DNA of 64,000 nt from Patescibacteria group bacterium. Lineage in GTDB: Bacteria; Patescibacteriota; Minisyncoccia; JAHIHE01; JAGLIN01. Positions 14,154 to 58,923 of the stretch are shown piece by piece (position 1 is the first letter of the stretch; each line of letters begins with the position of its first letter). The notes under the pieces are model-generated. The model saw only the letters and a list, made by a program, of their open reading frames with translations, ran no database searches and was not told the origin of the DNA. The DNA lies in contig JAHYJV010000001.1 of NCBI GenBank assembly GCA_019428855.1, positions 14,885 to 78,884 of the forward strand, in the 5' to 3' direction. A program made the translations under genes and the position numbers.

Positions 14154-15890
14154 ATGAAAAAAACAAAAGACAATTTTTTAGATGTTGCTTACTTTTCAAT
14201 GGAAGTGGCTATTAATTCGGAAATGATGACATATAGCGGTGGTTTGGGAGTGTTGGCGGGTGATACGCTAAAAACTTTTGCTGACTTTAAGTATACAGCA
14301 GTAGGAATTACGATTTTACATGAACAAGGCTATGTCAAACAGAGTCTTGATTCAGCAGGACAACAAATAAGTAAATCGGTGCTTTGGAATAAAGAAGAAA
14401 ATTTAACAAAACTTCCTTTTACTATCGAGGTTCCCTTGAGCGATCATGTAGTTGTGTGTGCAATTTGGCAATATAATATTGAGGGACAATTCGGCGATAT
14501 CGTGCCTGTGTATTTTTTAGATTCTAATCTTCCTCAAAATACTGAGTATGATCGTACATTTACGAGTCACTTATACGGAGGTGATAGATTTTATCGCCTT
14601 TGCCAAGAACAGTTACTTGGATTAGGTGGTTTGATCTTGCTTGAGATGTTAAATTATAATTCTGACAAAGTTCGTATCTACCATTTGAACGAAGGTCATG
14701 CTTCTTTTGTCGGATTGGCTCTGTATGAGCAGGCTAAGAAATTATTTTCAACCCATATTGAAGTAATTGATTATATAGGTTCCAAATTAGTATTTACGAC
14801 ACATACCCCTGTTGAGGCTGGTCATGATCGTTTCTTAATTTCTGATGTTAAGCACACTCTTCCTGCCAGTCTTTTTGAGAAGATTCCGCAAGAATGCTTT
14901 TTAGAAGATAAACTTTGTATGACATTATTGTCTCTTTATTTTTCTGGCATTGTAACTGGAGTAGCGAAGATGCATGAAAAAGTAACAGAAAAGATGTTTC
15001 CAGAATATGATATCATACCTGTCACAAATGGTGCCTATCATCTGGAATGGACTCATCCAGATTTAAAAAAAGTTTACGATGAATATATTCCCGAATGGAC
15101 CATTGATCCATCTAGCTTGCGAAAAGCAATTAGTATACCAGATGAAAAAATATGGGATGCACATGTTGAGGCGAAAAAGAAATTGATAAAATATGTAAAT
15201 CAATTCTCAGAAAATGAATTTTCAGTGGATGTTTGTACTTTGGGATATGCTCGTCGTTTTACATCGTATAAACGACCCGCCCTTATTTTAGCTGATCTCG
15301 AAAAATTGGAAAATATGATTTCTGCCGTGGGAAGTTTGCAAATTATTTTTGCTGGAAAGGCTCACCCTTCCGATGAAAAAGGCAAGGATTCGATAAGGGG
15401 TATTTACGAAATAATTCAAAAACATCAGGGAAAAATTAAGATGATATTTTTAGAGGACTATAATATGGAAATGGCTAAAAAATTGGTGGCTGGAGTTGAT
15501 ATTTGGCTAAACACTCCCTTGCAAAAGTTTGAAGCTTCTGGAACAAGCGGAATGAAAGCATCATTTAATGGAGTTCCACATCTAAGTGTCTTGGATGGTT
15601 GGTGGCCAGAGGGCTGGACTGAAGGGGTGACGGGATGGTCAATTGGTAAAAATTCTTCAGAGGCTAGAATTGATGATTTGACTAGCTGGAATTTTGAAGT
15701 TGAAGACTTATATCAAAAGCTTGCTACGAATATTTTACCTTTGTATTATCAAGACCGATTAGGATTTATAAAGATAATGAAACATGCTCTTGCGTTAAAC
15801 GGGTCACATTTTAATACATATAGAATGATGAACGATTATGTCGCAAAAGTTTATTTTCCATTGAAAAATGGATTAAATAAAAAGTGGTAG
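14154..15890 (+). CDS. glgP: Alpha-glucan (glycogen/maltodextrin) phosphorylase, GT35 short form
   Basis: N-terminal YFSMEVAINSEMMTYSGGLGVLAGD and the PLP-lysine region EASGTSGMKASFNGVPHLSVLDGWW. Confidence 0.8.
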   Translation: MKKTKDNFLDVAYFSMEVAINSEMMTYSGGLGVLAGDTLKTFADFKYTAVGITILHEQGYVKQSLDSAGQQISKSVLWNKEENLTKLPFTIEVPLSDHVVVCAIWQYNIEGQFGDIVPVYFLDSNLPQNTEYDRTFTSHLYGGDRFYRLCQEQLLGLGGLILLEMLNYNSDKVRIYHLNEGHASFVGLALYEQAKKLFSTHIEVIDYIGSKLVFTTHTPVEAGHDRFLISDVKHTLPASLFEKIPQECFLEDKLCMTLLSLYFSGIVTGVAKMHEKVTEKMFPEYDIIPVTNGAYHLEWTHPDLKKVYDEYIPEWTIDPSSLRKAISIPDEKIWDAHVEAKKKLIKYVNQFSENEFSVDVCTLGYARRFTSYKRPALILADLEKLENMISAVGSLQIIFAGKAHPSDEKGKDSIRGIYEIIQKHQGKIKMIFLEDYNMEMAKKLVAGVDIWLNTPLQKFEASGTSGMKASFNGVPHLSVLDGWWPEGWTEGVTGWSIGKNSSEARIDDLTSWNFEVEDLYQKLATNILPLYYQDRLGFIKIMKHALALNGSHFNTYRMMNDYVAKVYFPLKNGLNKKW

Positions 15891-21998: not shown

Positions 21999-22395
21999 TG
22001 GTGGAGATGGCGGGAATTGAACCCGCGTCTAGTAAATCCATTTAAAAATCATCTACCAATATATGCCGTTCTTTGGGGTTTAAAATTTATAAGCAATGAA
22101 CGACCAAGACCTCATAAATTCGATTCTGACTAAATTTTCAGATTTTTGCGGTAAGAAATCACAAAGTCCTATCTTGATGTATAACACCGAAGTTTTGCCT
22201 ATCAAGATTTGGCAAATCGATGGCTACCGGTCTATTAGACAGTAGCAGTCGCAAATGTAGGAACTCTAAATAGAGAAGCTACTTTGCTTACAAGTGATTC
22301 TGCACTTATATTTTTCTGATAATTTTTACGAGATTAACCAGAATGCTCGATTGGCAATTTTCAAATTAAGATTCCTATCGAATCTAAACATCCCC
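21999..22395 (-). ncRNA. ssrA: tmRNA (SsrA)
   Basis: 5' GGGGATG pairs with 3' CATCTCC-ACCA and includes the G3-U70 wobble. The T-arm GCGGG-TTCAATT-CCCGC precedes the CCA end. An internal tag frame starts at GCA near nt 93 and ends in tandem stops TAA TAG. smpB lies immediately upstream. Confidence 0.85.
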
Positions 22396-22443: not shown

Positions 22444-22890
22444 TTATTTTTCTCGTAAAGCTCTTTTCATACTCACTTCAGCCTCTCTTTTTTTGATATC
22501 TTCTCGCTTGTCAATTTTCTTTTTTCCCTTACCAACACCAAACTCAAGCTTTATAAGCCCGCGAGTAGAGTATACTCTAATTGGTACTAATGTCAACCCT
22601 TTTTGGCTAATTTTTCCAAGTAGAGATTTGATTTCTTTTTTATGGATGAGAACCTTCCTAGATTGATTGGGGTCGTATTCTGGTGGCATATTTTTTACTT
22701 GATAGGCTGGGATATTGGCATTTGTTAAAAATGCTTCATTTTCATGAATTGTGACGAATGCTCCTTTAAGACTAATGTGTCCAGTTTTAATTGATTTAAC
22801 TTCATATCCAGCTAATACTAACCCACCTTCTAGTTTTTCTAGAATTTCATAATCAAAATTGACTCGTTTATTAATAGCGTATGTTGGCAT
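22444..22890 (-). CDS. smpB: SsrA-binding protein
   Basis: MPTYAINKRVNFDYEILEKLEGGLVLAGYEVKS... Confidence 0.9.
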   Translation of the reverse strand: MPTYAINKRVNFDYEILEKLEGGLVLAGYEVKSIKTGHISLKGAFVTIHENEAFLTNANIPAYQVKNMPPEYDPNQSRKVLIHKKEIKSLLGKISQKGLTLVPIRVYSTRGLIKLEFGVGKGKKKIDKREDIKKREAEVSMKRALREK

Positions 22891-24480: not shown

Positions 24481-24776
24481 TTTTTAGATTTGCATTTTTA
24501 TAATTCTGAAGGATTAAGCTACGAGAAAGGTTTGATGTTTTAGTTTCTGTTATTTCAAATTTGATTTAGAATTTTTGTTATTACAAGTTTTTATTTTTTA
24601 TTTAGAAATTTTTTTTTATTTACAGTCTAATTGCAATTATTTGCTTAATTGCATATTGTGTTTTTATTATGAGAAAAATAGCATGTCAATTATGGTTTAA
24701 ATTAATGTAATGGACAAAAGTCCTGAATCAAGTTTAGGATGGTAAATTGGTTGATAATTATATTATATTATCAAAA

Positions 24777-24813
24777 CAAAATCCGCAGACTGATGAGCGG
24801 ATTTTGTTTTTTT
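24777..24813 (+). terminator. Orphan Rho-independent terminator (AAATCCGC-N10-GCGGATTT + T-run)
   Basis: Read directly; it lies about 300 bp downstream of the GT4 gene in a 1.2-kb AT-rich gap. Confidence 0.45.
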
Positions 24814-24998
24814 CTCAACTCGTCTTTCGGGAAAGATGGGATGGGAAAAAAGAAAAAGGAAGGGACTAACTAATTGTCCTTGTAATTAATTTTAATTTCT
24901 TTTTGATTTCGTCAATTTCTAATCCTTTTTGCATTATACCAATGCAATGGTTTATCTGACTGATAAGAAAATCTAATTTATATAGTCCCCGTCTTCTT

Positions 24999-25202
24999 TT
25001 AAAAATTATTATTTGCATGCAACAGAATTATTTCCCCGATACTTTTCTTTTTAGAGGACTTTAAGGAATACGCCAATTCCGTTAGCATTTCTTCTGGATC
25101 TCCCTTTTTATAATTATTGCGTTTTTTACAACCTCTTAATGATGTAATTATCTTTAAGAGAAGAGTGTATCCCTGATTGAGTTTCTTATTTACTTCTTTC
25201 AT
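24999..25202 (-). CDS. Possible small basic protein (67 aa)
   Basis: ORF only, no motif. Confidence 0.2.
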   Translation of the reverse strand: MKEVNKKLNQGYTLLLKIITSLRGCKKRNNYKKGDPEEMLTELAYSLKSSKKKSIGEIILLHANNNF

Positions 25203-25713
25203 ATTATAGCCTCCATAACTGGAAAACTAATAATTAAAACAGTTTTTATAATCAATTTTCTGGGATAAAGGTTTTTTTATTTTCTTCCTAATATTTCAAA
25301 GAACTTGTTTAAGTAGTTTTTGTTGTTTTTTATAAAACTTAGTAGGTTAACATAATTGGAAATATGTATAGCTTTACTTTTTGCTGTTTTTGGCTTATTA
25401 TAAAAGAGTATATAAGAATGTTTTACTTCAGTTCATATAAATTAAGTCTGTCATTTAGAACTTGATTCAGTATTATTATATAGCAATGAAATAATTTTAT
25501 AAATCACTGAATGTTTGATAAAAGTGAAAAATCAATAATTAGAAGATATAGAAATAACGGTCGCAGTTAAACTGTAAGCAAACAAATATTGTAAGCTAAA
25601 AAAAAATAAGATGTAATATTCGAAGGATTTTGAATTAAGTTCAGAATGACAAAGATAATGTCAATAATCTAATAAGAAAGTATTATTATATATTAAAATC
25701 TAAAATTAAAATA

Positions 25714-28700
25714 ATGTTTAAAAAGGTAAATCCGAGGCAGAATTTTCCAGAGATGGAGAAGGATGTGATGAAATTTTGGGAAGATAATAAAATATTTGAA
25801 AAATCTGTAGAAAATCAGGGTAATAAAAAAACATATAGCTTTTTTGATGGACCTCCGTTTGCGACAGGGCTTCCTCACTATGGACATGTTGTCGCCAGTT
25901 TGATCAAGGATGTTGTACCACGATTTCGGACAATGAAAGGCAACAAAGTGAACCGTAAATGGGGTTGGGATTGTCATGGTTTGCCGATTGAAAATTTGAT
26001 TGAAAAAGAACACGATATCAAAAATAAGCAGGATATTGAAAAGTGGGGGGTTGATAATTTCAATAATACTTGTCATAATTCTGTTTTGCGTTATGCGGAA
26101 GATTGGAAGAAATTTATTCCACGCATGGGTAGATGGGTTGATATGGAAAATGATTATCGCACGATGGATTGGAAATATACGGAAAGTATTTGGTGGGTTT
26201 TTTCCGAGCTTTTCAAAAAAGGACTGGTTTATGAAGGACACAAAGCGATGCATATTTGCCCAAGGTGTGAGACGACGCTTTCTAATTTTGAAGTGACGCA
26301 GGGATATAAGTATATCACAGATTTATCGGCGACAGTGAAGTTTAAGTTGAAAAAAGAGAGCGGAAAATTGTTAAGGGAAAAGATCCTGAATCAAGTTCAG
26401 GATGACAGTGCAAATCAGGATGAAAAAAATCTCAGGGCGAATTTCTCAAATCATAATGATGAAGATGTTTTTTTGTTAGCTTGGACAACAACGCCGTGGA
26501 CTTTACCGGGAAATGTGGCTTTGGCGGTTAGGGAAGATATTGAGTATATAGAAATTGCTGAAAGCATTAAAGGTAGTATAAGTTCAGATAATAAAACATA
26601 TGAGCTTCCTAGTAATGAAAAATATATCATTGCAAAAAAAATCTTTTCAAAAGAAAGTCAAAAACTTGTGACAGATAATGATTTAAGTCAGGTTTATATT
26701 TACGAAGGAAAGAATTATAAAATAATTAAAGAATTTAAAGGTAAAGATTTAGTCGGTTTGGAATATGAACCTTTGTTTGACTATTATTTTCAAAAAGATG
26801 ATTTGGAAAATAAAGATAACGGTTGGAAAATTTATGCTGGTGATTTTGTTTCCACAGATGAAGGAACAGGAGTTGTTCATATTGCACCAGCATTTGGAGA
26901 TGACGATATGAAGATGGGGCAGAAACATAATTTGCCTTTTGTTCAGCATGTTAAAATGAGCGGGAGATTTACAGAGGAAGTGGTTGATTTCAAGGATAAA
27001 GATGGAGGAAATGCGGAAGTAAAACCTAAGGGAGTGGCTGGCGAAAAAGATGCAAACATGAAGACTGATATTGAAATTATCAAATATTTAGCACATCATA
27101 ATTTTCTGTTTTCAAAGAAAAAATATGAACATAGTTATCCTCATTGTTGGAGATGTGATACGCCGCTTTTGAATTATGCGACGAGTTCTTGGTTTGTGAA
27201 GGTGACGGAAATTAAAGATCAAATGGTGACAAATAACAAACAAGTAAACTGGACTCCGGAATATATTAAGGAGGGGAGATTTGGAAAGTGGCTGGAAGAT
27301 GCGCGCGATTGGGCAATTTCACGAAACCGATTTTGGGGAGCTCCGCTACCAATTTGGAAGTGCTCAGATTGTGAGAATGTTGAAGTTGTGAATTCGATTG
27401 ATGAACTTCGAGAAAAAACAGAGGAGAAAATCACCAAGTTTATTTTTGTCAGACATGGGGAAAGTGAAAGTAATTTAAATAATACGAAAGTAAGTCAAAT
27501 AAATGATTATCCATTGACGAACAAAGGCATTGAACAGTCGAAAAATATTGCAAAAATATTAAGTGACGAAAAGATTGATATCATCATTTCTTCTCCTATA
27601 CTCAGAACAAAACAGACCGCTGATATTATCAATGAGGTTTTAAATATTGAGAGAATTGAAGATGATAGAATCAAGGAATATGAATATGGGTCTTGGAACG
27701 GTCATAGCAGTGAGGAATTGTTTTGTGAAAAGAATGAAATATATCAAAATTATAAAAAGATGGAGGGTCCCGAAGAAAAATGGCATTTTAAATTTGGGGG
27801 AGACGGCGAGTCAAGGCTTGAAGTTGAAAAGAGAGTGCGGATTTTTATGGAAGAAATTAACAAAAAATATGCGGGTCAGAATATATTAGTTGTCAGCCAT
27901 GGCGGAGTCAATGCAATGCTTGTCAAGATTTTTGAGAATTTATCAATCAAGGAAACATACAAACATGAGTTTATCGGTCATGCAGAAAAAAGTGTTTTTT
28001 ATGCAAACAGTGAAGGAAAAAAATTTGACCTTCATAAACCAAATATTGATGGAGTAAAAATTAAATGTTCTGCTTGTGGTAGTGAGGCAAAAATCGTCGG
28101 TGATGTATTTGATTGTTGGTTTGAATCTGGTTCAATGCCTTATGCTCAGTGGCACTATCCATTTGAAAACAAGGATGAATTTGAAAAAAATTTTCCAGCA
28201 GATTTTATTGCGGAAGGGTTGGATCAAACGCGAGGTTGGTTCTATACTTTGATGGTGCTTTCGACGGCACTTTTTGACAAAGCTCCATTTAATAATGTGA
28301 TTGTGAATGGTATGGTCCTAGCCGAAGATGGGCAGAAAATGAGCAAGAGATTACAGAACTATCCCGAGCCTAATTTGGTAATCGAAAAATATGGAGCTGA
28401 TGCTTTGCGATATTATCTTTTGTCTTCACCGGTGATGAAAGGGGAGAGTTTGCGATTTTCAGAAAAGGGAGTTGATGAAGTTCTGAAGAAGTTTATTTTG
28501 ACGCTTTGGAATACCTATTCATTTTTGGTGATGAATGTGGACGAAGAGATCTTTCTTCGCCAAGCTCAGAATGACAAAGTATATTTAAAATCTGAAAATC
28601 TACTTGATCAGTGGATTATTTCAGAATTCAATATTTTAATTGGAGAGGTGAATAAGGAAATGGAAAACTATGATTTGGTGCGTGCCACCAGACCATTGCG

Positions 28701-29550
28701 TGAGTTTATAGAGAAGCTTTCCAATTGGTATGTTCGTCGAAGTAGAAAAAGATTTGCGTCAGAAAATGTTAATGATCGGAATTTTGCCCAGCAAACTTTA
28801 TATTATGTTCTGAGCGAATATGCGAAATTGTTAGCGCCATTTATGCCATTTTTATCTGAAGAAATATATCGAAATTTAACTGACAAAGAGTCTGTTCATC
28901 TGTCGGATTATCCCATTTCTAATCAAGATTTAATCAATGAAAAAGTAAGCGGTGAAATGAATTTTATTAGACAGGTGATTTCGCTGGGCTTGGCGATTCG
29001 TGCCAAGAATGCAATTAAGGTCAGAATGCCTCTGGCTACTTTACAAATTCAAAGTGAAAAATCGAAATTGGAAAATAAAGAATTAATGAATTTGATAAAG
29101 GAAGAATTAAATGTGAAGGCCGTTGAGTTTGTTGAATCTTTGCAAAAAGGATCTACTCAAGAGAATGGAGCAGACGAAGGTGGCTGGGCGATTGCAGAGG
29201 AAGTAGGATTGAAAGTGGCACTTGATTTGAATTTGACGGAAGAATTAAAAAATGAAGGATTGGCCAGAGAGTTAGTTCGACATATTCAAGTGATGAGAAA
29301 AGAGGCAAAATTTAATCGAGAGGATTTGATTTTTATTGAATACAGCTTTATAAAAGAAAGCAAGGGAGTGGAGAAAGCTTTTGAAAGCTGGAAAGATTGT
29401 ATCAAAAAAGAGTGTTTGGCAAAAACTATGAAATTCAAAGAAGTAATTGAAAGTGAAAATTTTGATTCAGTGAAAGAATTGAAGGTGGGGGAGTCTGTGG
29501 TTAAAGTTGGGGTTAAAAAATATAATAAAAAAGAAAGGAAGATTTTATAA
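25714..29550 (+). CDS. ileS: Isoleucyl-tRNA synthetase with an embedded histidine-phosphatase domain
   Basis: HIGH (PHYGHVV), WAISRNRFWGAPLPIW and KMSKS (KMSKR) motifs. At 1278 aa it is about 200 aa longer than typical IleRS because of an insert between the WKCSDC and CSACGS zinc-knuckle halves. Confidence 0.9.
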   Translation: MFKKVNPRQNFPEMEKDVMKFWEDNKIFEKSVENQGNKKTYSFFDGPPFATGLPHYGHVVASLIKDVVPRFRTMKGNKVNRKWGWDCHGLPIENLIEKEHDIKNKQDIEKWGVDNFNNTCHNSVLRYAEDWKKFIPRMGRWVDMENDYRTMDWKYTESIWWVFSELFKKGLVYEGHKAMHICPRCETTLSNFEVTQGYKYITDLSATVKFKLKKESGKLLREKILNQVQDDSANQDEKNLRANFSNHNDEDVFLLAWTTTPWTLPGNVALAVREDIEYIEIAESIKGSISSDNKTYELPSNEKYIIAKKIFSKESQKLVTDNDLSQVYIYEGKNYKIIKEFKGKDLVGLEYEPLFDYYFQKDDLENKDNGWKIYAGDFVSTDEGTGVVHIAPAFGDDDMKMGQKHNLPFVQHVKMSGRFTEEVVDFKDKDGGNAEVKPKGVAGEKDANMKTDIEIIKYLAHHNFLFSKKKYEHSYPHCWRCDTPLLNYATSSWFVKVTEIKDQMVTNNKQVNWTPEYIKEGRFGKWLEDARDWAISRNRFWGAPLPIWKCSDCENVEVVNSIDELREKTEEKITKFIFVRHGESESNLNNTKVSQINDYPLTNKGIEQSKNIAKILSDEKIDIIISSPILRTKQTADIINEVLNIERIEDDRIKEYEYGSWNGHSSEELFCEKNEIYQNYKKMEGPEEKWHFKFGGDGESRLEVEKRVRIFMEEINKKYAGQNILVVSHGGVNAMLVKIFENLSIKETYKHEFIGHAEKSVFYANSEGKKFDLHKPNIDGVKIKCSACGSEAKIVGDVFDCWFESGSMPYAQWHYPFENKDEFEKNFPADFIAEGLDQTRGWFYTLMVLSTALFDKAPFNNVIVNGMVLAEDGQKMSKRLQNYPEPNLVIEKYGADALRYYLLSSPVMKGESLRFSEKGVDEVLKKFILTLWNTYSFLVMNVDEEIFLRQAQNDKVYLKSENLLDQWIISEFNILIGEVNKEMENYDLVRATRPLREFIEKLSNWYVRRSRKRFASENVNDRNFAQQTLYYVLSEYAKLLAPFMPFLSEEIYRNLTDKESVHLSDYPISNQDLINEKVSGEMNFIRQVISLGLAIRAKNAIKVRMPLATLQIQSEKSKLENKELMNLIKEELNVKAVEFVESLQKGSTQENGADEGGWAIAEEVGLKVALDLNLTEELKNEGLARELVRHIQVMRKEAKFNREDLIFIEYSFIKESKGVEKAFESWKDCIKKECLAKTMKFKEVIESENFDSVKELKVGESVVKVGVKKYNKKERKIL
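27433..28020 (+). other. In-frame histidine-phosphatase (phosphoglycerate-mutase superfamily) domain inserted inside ileS
   Basis: FIFVRHGESESN (RHG catalytic His) ... LVVSHGGVNAM (second His motif). It is flanked by the IleRS segments ..PIWKCSDCENVEVVNSIDELREK and DLHKPNIDGVKIKCSACGS..DVFDCWFESGSMP. Confidence 0.7.
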
Positions 29551-29594
29551 TTTATATAATCATCTGCCTTTCGTAATTTGATTTCGTTGAAGAT

Positions 29595-29873
29595 TTATCT
29601 TTTGGCTAGTACATTTACTGTGAAAACCGAGATTTTATATCCTCCTTTTTGTATAGTAAAGAGAGGTTTTTCCCCTATTATACTTGTATTACAAAAAAAA
29701 GATCCGACCTTATCTGGAATAATTCCATACCCTCCTTTAACATTGATTTTTTTGTTTGGAATTACTAATCTTCCATCAGGTGTTATAGCGACTAGTTGTG
29801 CAACGCCGTTCAAGCTTTTTTTTTCGAATGTTAGTACCTCTATTGAAATTGCTGCTGTACTTATTTTTACCAT
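29595..29873 (-). CDS. Hypothetical small protein (92 aa); it looks more protein-like than the overlapping plus-strand ORF
   Basis: Composition only. Confidence 0.3.
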   Translation of the reverse strand: MVKISTAAISIEVLTFEKKSLNGVAQLVAITPDGRLVIPNKKINVKGGYGIIPDKVGSFFCNTSIIGEKPLFTIQKGGYKISVFTVNVLAKR

Positions 29874-29960
29874 TAAATCACATCTTTTTGGAGTTAAGAA
29901 TATTAATATCTTAAAACAATTAAATTCTATATAAAAAAAGAATATTTGTCAATTATTTGA

Positions 29961-56552: not shown

Positions 56553-58082
56553 ATGAATGAAATACAAATAATGATTGGTTTGCTTGTAGCTTTTAGTGTG
56601 GGTGCTATGATAGGATATTTAGGTAGGCAGTTTCTGGCAACAAAACAAATGGAAACTGCAGAAGGAAAAGTTAACAAGATTTTAAGTGATGCCAAAAATC
56701 AGGCAGCAGAAATTTCGTTGAATGCCAAAAACAAGGCTGTCAAAATTTTAGATGATGCCAAGAATGAAGAGATGGAAAGAAATAGACAAGTAAATCGAAA
56801 TGAACAAAGGCTGGTAAGTAAGGAAGAAAATTTAGAAAAGGAAAAAATAGAAATTGAGAATCAAAAAGTAATACTTCAGGGAAAGGGCAAACAAATTTTG
56901 AAAATCAAGGATGATATTGAAAATATTAAGCAAGAGCAAATAAAAAAATTAGAAGAAATTGCTGATTTAGATCAAGAAGCTGCTAAACAAATTATTCTTG
57001 AAAAGGTTGAGCAAGTTCACAAAGAAGAAGTGATCAAGAAAATCAAGGATCTTGAAGAAGAAGGTCAAGATGTTCTCAAGGCGAAAGCAAATGATATTAT
57101 TGTGCAGGCTATTCAAAGATATTCTGGAGCACATACAGCTGAAACTACGACTTCAAATGTTTCTTTGCCAAGTGATGAAATGAAAGGAAGAATTATTGGT
57201 CGAGAGGGAAGAAATATAAAAGCCCTAGAACAGGCAACTGGAGTGGAGATTATTATTGATGACACTCCTCAGACAATTATTGTTTCTGGATTTGATCCGA
57301 TTAGAAGGCAGGTTGCTAAGCTGTCGTTGGAAAAACTTATGCTAGATGGCAGGATTCATCCAGCTCGAATCGAAGAGATTGTTGATGAAGTCAAAAAAGA
57401 GATAATTGAGACAGTAAAGCATGCTGGACAGGTTGCTGTTTCAGATGTAGGTGTGGTTGGATTTAATCAAAAACTGGTTCAACTAATTGGAAGATTGAAA
57501 TATAGAACGAGTTATGGTCAAAATGTTTTAATTCATTCAATTGAAGTTGCTCATTTATCAGCGTCTATTGCTTCTGAGCTTGGTGCAAATGTTACAGTTG
57601 CCAGAAAGGCTGGGCTGCTTCATGACATCGGTAAGGCAGTTGACCATGAGATTCAAGGAACTCATGTTGAAATTGGTAGAAATATATTAATTAAATTTGG
57701 AATCTCAGAAGATATTATCAAAGCGATGCAGTCGCATCACGAAGATTTTCCTTTTGAAACGACAGAGTCAGTGATTGTGCGAGTTGCAGATGCAATTTCA
57801 GCTTCTCGTCCTGGTGCTAGAAAAGATTCTCTGGAGAATTATTTGAAGCGCTTGGAAGAGCTTGAAGGTATTGCAAATTCCTTTGAAGAGGTTGAGAAGT
57901 CCTTTGCGATTCAGGCTGGGAGAGAGATTCGTGTGTTTGTGACGCCAGAAAAGATTGATGATTTAGGAGCTGTAAAGATTTCAAAAGATATTGCAAAGAA
58001 AATTGAAGAGACTCTGAATTATCCTGGAGAAATTAAGGTTCATGTTATCAGAGAAACGAGGGCTATCGATTATGCCAGATAA
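56553..58082 (+). CDS. rny: Ribonuclease Y
   Basis: N-terminal TM helix, coiled-coil, KH domain (GRIIGREGRNIKALE) and HD domain (LLHDIGK). Confidence 0.9.
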   Translation: MNEIQIMIGLLVAFSVGAMIGYLGRQFLATKQMETAEGKVNKILSDAKNQAAEISLNAKNKAVKILDDAKNEEMERNRQVNRNEQRLVSKEENLEKEKIEIENQKVILQGKGKQILKIKDDIENIKQEQIKKLEEIADLDQEAAKQIILEKVEQVHKEEVIKKIKDLEEEGQDVLKAKANDIIVQAIQRYSGAHTAETTTSNVSLPSDEMKGRIIGREGRNIKALEQATGVEIIIDDTPQTIIVSGFDPIRRQVAKLSLEKLMLDGRIHPARIEEIVDEVKKEIIETVKHAGQVAVSDVGVVGFNQKLVQLIGRLKYRTSYGQNVLIHSIEVAHLSASIASELGANVTVARKAGLLHDIGKAVDHEIQGTHVEIGRNILIKFGISEDIIKAMQSHHEDFPFETTESVIVRVADAISASRPGARKDSLENYLKRLEELEGIANSFEEVEKSFAIQAGREIRVFVTPEKIDDLGAVKISKDIAKKIEETLNYPGEIKVHVIRETRAIDYAR

Positions 58083-58125
58083 TTCAAACTGACTATGCTA
58101 AGAATTAAGTATTAAATATTAAGCA

Positions 58126-58923
58126 ATGAATATTTTATTTTTTGGAGATCTTGTAGGAAGGTCAGCCAGGAACATCTTAAAGCAGATTTTGCCAGAAATG
58201 AAAAAAAAATATAACATTGACCTTACCATTGCTAATGGTGATAATTTAGCACATGGAAAGGGAGTAACGAAAAATACGCTTCAGGAAATAAAAGAGTATG
58301 GGATTGATATTATAACTTGTGGTGATCATACCTGGGATACTTCCCAGGCAATCGAAATATTAAAGAGCAGTGAGTTTAACTTTATCTGTCCAGCAAACTA
58401 TCCCATCTTAGATCTTAAGAAAGGTTATAAAATCATTAAAATTAAGTCTAAGAAGGTTTTAGTTATAAATTTGATTGGCAGGGTTTTTCTAAAAGATCAT
58501 CCTGATTGTCCATTTCGTGCTGTTGATAAAATCCTCAAAGATAATAAAGAAAAATTTGATATAGCGATAGTTGATTTTCATGGCGAGGCGACAAGTGAGA
58601 AAAGAGCTCTTGGTTTATATTTAGACTCAAGAGTTTCTTGTTTTTTGGGAACACATACACACATTCAAACTGCTGATGAGCAAATCTTTCCAGGAGGAAC
58701 AGCCTATATTTCCGATGTTGGAATGGTTGGTCCGAATGATTCTGTTTTGGGCTGTAAAAAAGAATTTGTGATAGAGCAAATGCAAAATCAAACTAAATTT
58801 TGCTATCAAATTAGTGAGGACAAAAATATTTTGATTGGGGCGGTGGTCGTTGAAATTGATGATAAAAAATTAGTAGCAAAAAATATTTTGCGTATAAATG
58901 AGGTTGTAAAAAGTTCTGTTTGA
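58126..58923 (+). CDS. ymdB: YmdB-family metallophosphoesterase (2',3'-cyclic-nucleotide phosphodiesterase-like)
   Basis: MNILFFGDLVGR..IANGDNLAHGKG..GDHTWD motifs, and rny-ymdB synteny. Confidence 0.8.
   Translation: MNILFFGDLVGRSARNILKQILPEMKKKYNIDLTIANGDNLAHGKGVTKNTLQEIKEYGIDIITCGDHTWDTSQAIEILKSSEFNFICPANYPILDLKKGYKIIKIKSKKVLVINLIGRVFLKDHPDCPFRAVDKILKDNKEKFDIAIVDFHGEATSEKRALGLYLDSRVSCFLGTHTHIQTADEQIFPGGTAYISDVGMVGPNDSVLGCKKEFVIEQMQNQTKFCYQISEDKNILIGAVVVEIDDKKLVAKNILRINEVVKSSV

Follow-up and report, generated by a model that had tools for sequence, protein, structure and literature searches.

Bacterial aminoacyl-tRNA synthetases (aaRSs) are usually viewed as architecturally conservative enzymes, appended domains being found mainly in eukaryotes and being mostly non-catalytic. 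Among the isoleucyl-tRNA synthetases (IleRSs), the type-2 enzymes, which are of the mupirocin-resistant type, carry the HIGH and KMSKS signatures, a CP1 editing domain and a C-terminal DUF5915, and the enzyme of Thermus thermophilus has a zinc-binding CP3 subdomain, an element whose topology varies among IleRSs (PMC7191050). All of these features are found again in the product of the ileS gene analyzed in this work, which lies in a stretch of 64,000 nucleotides (the window) from a Patescibacteria group bacterium (contig JAHYJV010000001.1, positions 14,885 to 78,884). Compared with an ordinary type-2 IleRS, however, this protein has an enzyme of 195 amino acids within the loop of the CP3 zinc knuckle, together with a low-complexity expansion of the hairpin that enters CP1. 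Our main finding is that the inserted enzyme is a complete and apparently active histidine-phosphatase domain, and that the insertion appears to be inherited with its host gene across the Paceibacteria/Parcubacteria part of the Patescibacteria.

The domain was recognized by the Pfam model His_Phos_1 with an E-value of 2.5e-39 (135.4 bits against a gathering threshold of 21.7), the match spanning profile positions 2-188 of 194, and the interval 27433-28020 searched alone gave an E-value of 1.8e-40. Modelled alone with AlphaFold2 (AF2), the insert reached a pLDDT of 96.4 and a pTM of 0.92, and within the model of the IleRS its pLDDT was 90-97. Both signatures of the superfamily, RHG and VVSHGG, are present as an earlier note on this DNA had pointed out, and R580, H581, R631 and H729 are invariant in all 109 homologs that carry the insert, with G582 conserved in 96% and N587 in 94% of them; the catalytic residues are under strict purifying selection. 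The same note had read the open reading frame (ORF) as an IleRS of 1278 amino acids with about 200 extra residues, continuous in frame between the two CxxC halves of the knuckle, flanked by conserved IleRS sequence and not derived from fusion with a neighbouring gene. The ORF has that length, and profile, alignment and motif evidence agree with the architecture; the motifs quoted were all found in place (WAISRNRFWG at residue 533, WKCSDC at 548, RHGES at 580, VVSHGG at 726, CSACGS at 785, DCWFESG at 800 and KMSKR at 875). The note's estimate of the extra length is right as well, since the relatives without the insert are 1037-1110 amino acids long and show a clean gap of 195 residues at 577-771.

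The solved structures nearest to the insert are those of PspA (4IJ5/4IJ6), the histidine phosphatase HFP (9MMH), PhoE, CobC and GpgP. Against PspA 4IJ6 the identity is 33%, with a TM-score of 0.83 and a root-mean-square deviation (rmsd) of 2.2 Å, and the compact-phosphatase matches overall have TM-scores of 0.80-0.84 and rmsd values of 2.2-3.0 Å. The predicted fold is thus that of a compact phosphatase of the PspA/PhoE/CobC type and not that of a true mutase. The description of the domain as PGAM-like therefore holds at the level of the superfamily and not below it: dPGM structures, which are 30-50 residues longer, superpose with an rmsd above 6 Å, and the mutase models score below their cutoffs (TIGR01258, 37.8 against 81.7; archaeal dPGM, 94.8 against 225). 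The NCBIfam models for specific phosphatases also stay below cutoff on the insert, namely CobC (95.6 against 162.9), PspA (93.8 against 350), GpmB and SixA (E-value 8.6e-08). Since every specific NCBIfam family scores below its cutoff, no substrate can be assigned by homology. The insert also evolves faster than its host, with a mean pairwise identity of 0.37 compared to 0.60.

As to the host, the protein is the housekeeping type-2 IleRS of the organism, with its synthetic, editing and anticodon-binding elements all intact. The TIGR00392 model scores 908.7 bits on it against a cutoff of 621.4, in two halves that cover residues 6-581 and about 770-1145, and the scores of the ValRS, LeuRS and MetRS models are each below the respective cutoff. 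In the alignment of the homologs H55, Y56 and G57 of the HIGH signature are invariant and H58 is at least 90% conserved, K875 and K878 of the KMSKS signature are invariant with M876 and S877 nearly so, and the CP1 editing domain was found as LLAWTTTPWTLPGN, which carries the threonine-rich WTTTPWT motif with invariant W257, T258-T260 and W262. The AF2 model of residues 1-1150 (pLDDT 87.5, pTM 0.82) has its best matches in the Protein Data Bank in IleRS2 of Priestia megaterium (8C8V, 34% identity), in the T. thermophilus enzyme (1ILE, TM-score 0.91 normalised to the target) and in eukaryotic IleRSs; the first two share its overall fold, and type-1 enzymes superpose only with an rmsd above 8 Å. 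The C-terminal region is likewise of type 2, with DUF5915 and without the zinc-binding domain that ends type-1 enzymes. The hairpin of residues 212-250 at the entry to CP1 was modelled with a pLDDT of about 59-74, and its interpretation as a NUDIX remnant was rejected, as the low-complexity expansion is a shared one. From the intact motifs, the presence of a single ileS in the window and the conserved gene order GT4-ileS-recO, we infer that the enzyme charges tRNA-Ile.

The earlier note had located the insertion in the catalytic core of the synthetase, and on this point it has to be corrected. The host element is CP3, a peripheral and structurally variable subdomain outside the catalytic centre, and the variable topology of CP3 among IleRSs is what marks the insertion site as peripheral. 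In the Candida enzyme CP3 comprises residues 473-534 (PMC7191050), and in the alignment to the yeast/Candida-type IleRS the insert comes after residue 492 and before residue 499 of the latter. CP3 starts directly after the CP2-CP3 linker ARDWAISRNRFWG, and the phosphatase begins about 35 residues past this linker. The yeast equivalent, 453-ARDWNVSRNRYWG-465, forms the pocket for the CCA end and for reveromycin, and when a LeuRS-tRNA complex is superposed the arginines of the yeast linker lie at positions contacting A73, C74 and A76 (PMC7955072). Each of the four knuckle cysteines is conserved in 96% of the 109 homologs. The spacing from C553 to S561 is fixed at 7 residues and that from H774 to C785 at 10 residues in 108 of 108 sequences, and the N-terminal linker, from GS to RHG, measures 17-18 residues in 102 of these 108. 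In the relatives without the insert the knuckle is compact, with about 45 residues (C..C..IEVIGS..EL..K...DLHKPYID..IKCPKCG).

The insertion is widespread among related genomes. The best 120 matches of a search with the full-length protein, all of them IleRSs with 45-100% identity, were aligned with MAFFT; their named sources are Patescibacteria groups (Campbell-, Niyogi-, Yonath-, Buchanan-, Berkel- and Pacebacteria, and others). The insert occupies exactly the same site in 109 of them, and the other 11 have a gap there, which in three runs exactly from 577 to 771. A scan of one genome per GTDB species with a 285-residue query that includes the insert gave 594 confirmed stretches, the best 80 of which belong to 80 different genomes, one of them the closed 995-kb chromosome CP060229.1; all 80 cover the whole query, as one copy each inside ileS. 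These results leave next to no probability for an artefact, be it a chimeric assembly, an element that is excised, such as an intein, or neighbouring genes wrongly called as one, and no evidence in support of one was found. A chimera is excluded because the same junctions recur across more than 100 independent assemblies. Inteins begin with Cys or Ser and end with His-Asn followed by Cys, Ser or Thr, and the boundaries of the insert (…KITKFIF… and …SEGKKFDLHKP…) are unlike such junctions; no part of the protein matches an intein (Hint) family in Pfam, and the His_Phos fold accounts for all 195 residues, so that there is no room for an intein. Moreover, the ileS frame is single and open, without a GC break across the insert and without a plus-strand terminator within the gene.

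Insert and core identities are correlated over 5886 sequence pairs (Pearson 0.63), the insert-less IleRSs nest at several separate places in a neighbour-joining tree built from the core only, and the gene order GT4-ileS-recO-GT2 is unchanged at the insert-less loci. The simplest reading of these sequence comparisons is one old insertion that descended vertically with its host and suffered several precise losses. No second His_Phos gene was found in the 64-kb window. The coordinates of the features are given below.

Table 1. Features of ileS and of its inserted phosphatase domain (positions in the window)
Feature	Position	Strand	Basis or remark
ileS, type-2 (eukaryote-like) IleRS with embedded phosphatase	25714..29550	+	1278-aa ORF, TIGR00392
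HIGH signature (HYGH, aa 55-58)	25876..25887	+	motif position
Hypervariable hairpin entering CP1 editing domain (aa 212-250), low-complexity helical expansion	26347..26463	+	
CP2-CP3 linker ARDWAISRNRFWG (aa 530-542), lines tRNA CCA-end pocket	27301..27339	+	sequence; yeast equivalent
First CxxC of CP3 zinc knuckle (C550, C553)	27361..27372	+	
Inserted histidine-phosphatase domain (aa 574-772; Pfam match 577-771)	27433..28029	+	PF00300
RHG motif (R580, H581 predicted phospho-histidine nucleophile, G582)	27451..27459	+	
R631, second phosphate-binding arginine	27604..27606	+	invariant 109/109
E655, predicted proton donor	27676..27678	+	E 94%, D 6% of homologs
H729, second catalytic histidine (VVSHGG)	27898..27900	+	invariant 109/109
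Second CxxC of CP3 zinc knuckle (C785, C788)	28066..28077	+	
KMSKS signature (KMSKR, aa 875-879)	28336..28350	+	motif position
Anticodon-binding domain (aa 965-1107)	28606..29034	+	Pfam, PF08264
C-terminal DUF5915, typical of type-2 IleRS (aa 1155-1269)	29176..29520	+	Pfam, PF19302

The same type of phosphatase domain was found in other settings. In a noisy neighbour-joining tree of the phosphatase domains, built from 153 columns, some dozen stand-alone proteins of about 200 amino acids, each with a start and a stop of its own, fall within the embedded clade; they are 41-49% identical to the IleRS insert, and one was confirmed on a 53-kb contig. One stand-alone copy has a ribK-ribE-ribH cluster 5 kb upstream (locus L086, 3210-4631 and 9983-10594) and is 66% identical to another stand-alone protein, P0023; the latter directly follows a gene for an inorganic pyrophosphatase, as seen on one contig of 2.8 kb (L004, 476-1769). 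Several IleRSs carry two copies of the domain in tandem and one ValRS fragment carries four, and all complete copies but one retain the R-H-N-R-E-H set. Two further insertion sites occur in IleRS, one at about query position 812-828, just past WFESG, and one at about 940-960, past KMSKS at the entry of the anticodon-binding domain. The IleRSs P0253 and P0329 have their copies at these two sites and an empty CP3, the sequence of P0329 occurring on contigs of up to 1.06 Mb; P0243 is another related IleRS noted for the extra phosphatase sites. ValRS is a host too (P0321/P0506, P0345/P0507 and P0248), with one, two or four copies; these lie at the position equivalent to CP3 and, in some of the proteins, at a second site directly ahead of the DWCISRQ motif. 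The ValRS model, whose cutoff is 704 bits, gives P0321 a score of 786. One ValRS-embedded copy is degenerate (RHNRAN).

In about 15 clusters of HD-containing CCA-adding enzymes, a clade from Patescibacteria, the HD domain is followed by an inserted and intact His_Phos domain (P0310, P0385-P0395, P0397 and P0400; loci L166 and L167), and their insert-less relatives, from named Candidatus Dojkabacteria, show a clean gap of about 210 amino acids. Because the domains embedded in the CCA-adding enzymes form their own branch, these enzymes have captured the domain independently. The idea that His_Phos replaces a dead HD domain there was rejected, the HD motifs being intact with and without the insert, a result that says nothing either way, and the gene neighbourhoods of the CCA fusions were uninformative. 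Among the top 150 relatives there are six non-solo hosts, namely IleRS, ValRS, the CCA-adding enzyme, a QueC-like protein, GpgS and an uncharacterised 358-residue protein, and three of the six types bind the CCA end of tRNA. The QueC-like host is a PP-loop protein (P0309). The GpgS host (P0283, cluster P0509-P0511) is a GT2-type protein named glucosyl-3-phosphoglycerate synthase by NCBI, and is probably a GpgS-GpgP fusion, joining consecutive steps of one pathway. Other small enzymes were also found in IleRS: a 116-residue, weakly MutT-like NUDIX domain with a strictly intact Nudix box lies in the CP1-entry hairpin of ten relatives, and further relatives have a NUDIX domain or a GNAT of the Acetyltransf_3 (RimJ/L) type inside CP1. 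These modules occur with or without the phosphatase.

Concerning function, we tentatively propose, as the explanation that we favour although it falls short of probable, that the phosphatase acts on a ligand shared by the enzymes of the tRNA 3' end, most likely a tRNA end blocked by phosphate. The polypeptide would then be bifunctional. Its IleRS part would charge and edit tRNA-Ile as usual, and the phosphatase would hydrolyse a phosphomonoester by way of a phospho-H581 intermediate; R580, R631 and H729 would bind the phosphate and E655 would donate the proton. The candidate substrate would be a 2'- or 3'-phosphate, or a residual phosphate, blocking the terminal A76, so that the acceptor end would be healed on the very enzyme that needs it; to the synthetic and editing sites, between which the 3' end already moves, one more stop would be added. 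This proposal is suggested by the repeated capture of the domain by ValRS, by the CCA-adding enzyme, which is unrelated, and by IleRS, where at least three sites are used, by the position of CP3 next to the linker of the CCA pocket, by the constrained length of the N-terminal tether, by the fact that the only fusion of known chemistry (GpgS with a GpgP-type phosphatase) joins consecutive steps, and by the ability of IleRS and ValRS to move the 3' end between two active sites. A precedent for such logic is the E. coli-type Cca, named 'multifunctional CCA addition/repair protein' in NCBIfam, whose HD domain is reportedly a 3'-end phosphatase, as Yakunin et al. are said to have described in 2004.

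Several observations weigh against a role at the tRNA end, and many of them would be expected if the domain were instead an autonomous small-molecule phosphatase, lodged in a permissive surface loop of a large, essential and constitutively expressed protein and working independently of aminoacylation, an explanation that we consider the main rival and only slightly less likely. Its substrate could then be a sugar-phosphate, phosphoserine, a nucleotide or a cofactor precursor, and the fusion would guarantee co-expression in a streamlined genome. The nearest characterised relatives of the insert (PspA, the riboflavin-pathway HFP, PhoE, CobC and GpgP) all act on small molecules. The domain is predicted to fold well alone, and the embedded domains, with a median net charge of -3 and an isoelectric point of 5.9, are mildly acidic, as soluble metabolic enzymes are; they show no electrostatic signature of RNA binding, being no more basic than the stand-alone ones. 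The insert is lost several times, cleanly and without nearby replacement, as no compensating stand-alone phosphatase was found within ±10 kb of the insert-less ileS genes. The function appears to be separable from IleRS, because the stand-alone forms, which would be escapes, nest inside the embedded clade, and the tree in which the captures are seen is, as mentioned, noisy. A single, exactly placed active site is difficult to reconcile with arrays that hold two to four intact copies, and the NUDIX and GNAT modules show that other IleRS loops are occupied by small enzymes of housekeeping type as well. Healing on IleRS and ValRS would serve two tRNA species only, unless it took place in trans. 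In addition, we know of no histidine phosphatase that acts on RNA 3' ends. The peripheral, variable nature of CP3 (PMC7191050) likewise fits a passenger. On the other hand, a passenger does not explain why the hosts are strongly biased to enzymes of the tRNA 3' end, why ileS is the only chimeric gene in the 64-kb window, or why the N-terminal linker is constrained in length. The Aquifex histidine phosphatase HFP is a riboflavin-pathway enzyme (PMC12051542), and the stand-alone copy near the rib cluster would agree with a metabolic role of this kind. However, 743 kb of sequence surrounding 80 ileS loci with the insert and the window contained no rib genes, so that a riboflavin-pathway role is an unsupported possibility despite the match to 9MMH. 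More broadly, the Patescibacteria generally lack, to our knowledge, the pathways in which the characterised relatives of the phosphatase work, which also counts against a passenger.

Two other explanations would tie the phosphatase to the synthetase in a different way. It may act on nucleotides or pyrophosphate (PPi) at the synthetic site, with PPi, AMP, Ap4A-type or alarmone-type nucleotides as substrates. The earlier note had raised such adenylate or alarmone chemistry, or else a moonlighting domain, and our results speak neither for nor against these ideas of the note. In favour, IleRS, ValRS and the CCA-adding enzyme all use nucleoside triphosphates and release PPi, one stand-alone relative adjoins the pyrophosphatase gene, and NUDIX modules, which cleave nucleoside diphosphates linked to another moiety, co-occur in the same IleRSs. 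We regard this as unlikely: the histidine phosphatases of branch 1 are phosphomonoesterases or mutases, PPi and AMP are released by every aaRS and yet the only aaRS hosts seen are IleRS and ValRS, the link to pyrophosphatase comes from one 2.8-kb contig, and hydrolysis of AMP would be wasteful. A regulatory module, either a sensor of a phospho-metabolite or a protein phosphatase acting on IleRS or on a partner, for instance to reverse a kinase toxin, seems to us very unlikely. The superfamily does include the protein phosphatases SixA, PGAM5 and Sts-1, the insert is weakly matched by the SixA model, and the short tether is rigid as well as constrained in length. Nevertheless, the full catalytic set is kept, including a proton donor that would be superfluous in a pure sensor, the multi-copy arrays and stand-alone escapes misfit an allosteric role, and the 64-kb window offers no context of a kinase or toxin.

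If the phosphatase does act at the tRNA end, its more specific chemistry can be narrowed to a proposal that we hold to be doubtful: the phosphatases of IleRS, ValRS and the CCA-adding enzyme may strip 2'- or 3'-phosphates, or the residue left after a NUDIX domain clips a pyrophosphate added by a toxin. In that case tRNA that is damaged or blocked by a toxin would be repaired on the enzyme requiring a free A76, and the protein would be the first aaRS with integrated repair of tRNA ends and the first case of an RNA-end substrate for a histidine phosphatase. Action on tRNA ends would mean that organisms with minimal genomes control the quality of their tRNA, or defend themselves against toxins, at a new level. 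Should the domain be a passenger, it would be a clear example from nature of how enzyme domains can lie within permissive loops of essential proteins, from which protein engineering and the study of genome streamlining could profit. A second, apparently active enzyme is wired into the catalytic-domain insertions of an essential synthetase across a major and mostly uncultured bacterial lineage. Whichever explanation holds, a proper annotation could be given to well over 100 database entries that now go by 'class I tRNA ligase family protein' or 'histidine phosphatase family protein, partial'.

Some other features of the window are worth recording. The conserved gene order around ileS is L20-IF3-tmRNA-SmpB-GT4-ileS-recO. 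The tmRNA at 21999-22395 (-) is a full-length match to Rfam RF00023 with 129.5 bits, which ARAGORN did not report, and it adjoins smpB at 22444-22890 (-) (PF01668, E-value 2e-48). Upstream of ileS there is a 1.2-kb AT-rich gap (24481-25713, GC 0.22-0.30) without any ORF longer than 67 amino acids; it has no Rfam match either, and hence no T-box or other leader RNA, and the insert-less relatives have several small unannotated ORFs in its place. A 118-residue ORF between ileS and recO without Pfam match (29578-29934, +) and a 186-residue ORF antisense to the start of ileS (25693-26253, -) are probably spurious. A 578-residue ORF at 14154-15890 (+) matches PF00343, the profile of carbohydrate phosphorylases, in its middle part only (positions 321-579 of 713), and may encode a divergent or truncated glycogen-phosphorylase-like protein. 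At 56553-58923 (+), the gene of a YmdB-like phosphoesterase comes directly after that of RNase Y, which has RNase_Y_N, KH and HD domains; the two are a conserved pair of RNA turnover.

The earlier note had known of no precedent and had proposed a new aaRS architecture. This stands as far as the literature is concerned, as full-text searches, which covered no subscription journals, turned up no description of a phosphatase, a NUDIX or a similar enzyme embedded in IleRS, ValRS or the aaRSs of Patescibacteria. It does not stand for the databases, where well over 100 homologs are public and GenBank holds exactly the same protein (MBW6440447.1, 'class I tRNA ligase family protein'); the architecture is thus already deposited under generic annotation and apparently unstudied. 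A curated precedent for an IleRS with an in-frame foreign enzyme domain also exists in NF040702, 'isoleucine--tRNA ligase, N-acetyltransferase domain-containing'. The domain in that family is a GNAT and lies in the region of the editing domain, whereas here a His_Phos domain lies in CP3. Membership of our protein in NF040702 was rejected (302 bits against a cutoff of 1999), and the protein has no GNAT domain. One member of the family, P0240, has a GNAT and a His_Phos domain together. The compact branch-1 phosphatases (4IJ5, 9MMH, 1H2E, 6E4B/6NRU and 4QIH) have the same fold of about 200 residues and the same complete R-H-N-R-E-H set; they are free-standing, while the IleRS insert is embedded in another enzyme. 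The E. coli-type CCA-adding and repair enzyme (NF008137) couples an enzyme of the tRNA 3' end, a nucleotidyltransferase, to a phosphohydrolase, as we propose here, but with an HD fold and a CCA-adding host instead of a His_Phos fold in IleRS. Finally, in the RNase H/acid phosphatase of the Rv2228c type (NF005567) a CobC-like histidine phosphatase is fused to a nucleic-acid enzyme, and this model matches our insert with an E-value of 2e-23 when the full protein is searched and of 8.6e-24 when only the insert is, at a score of 83 against a cutoff of 326. In that protein the phosphatase is a terminal fusion with another partner enzyme, whereas in the IleRS described here it is an internal insertion.

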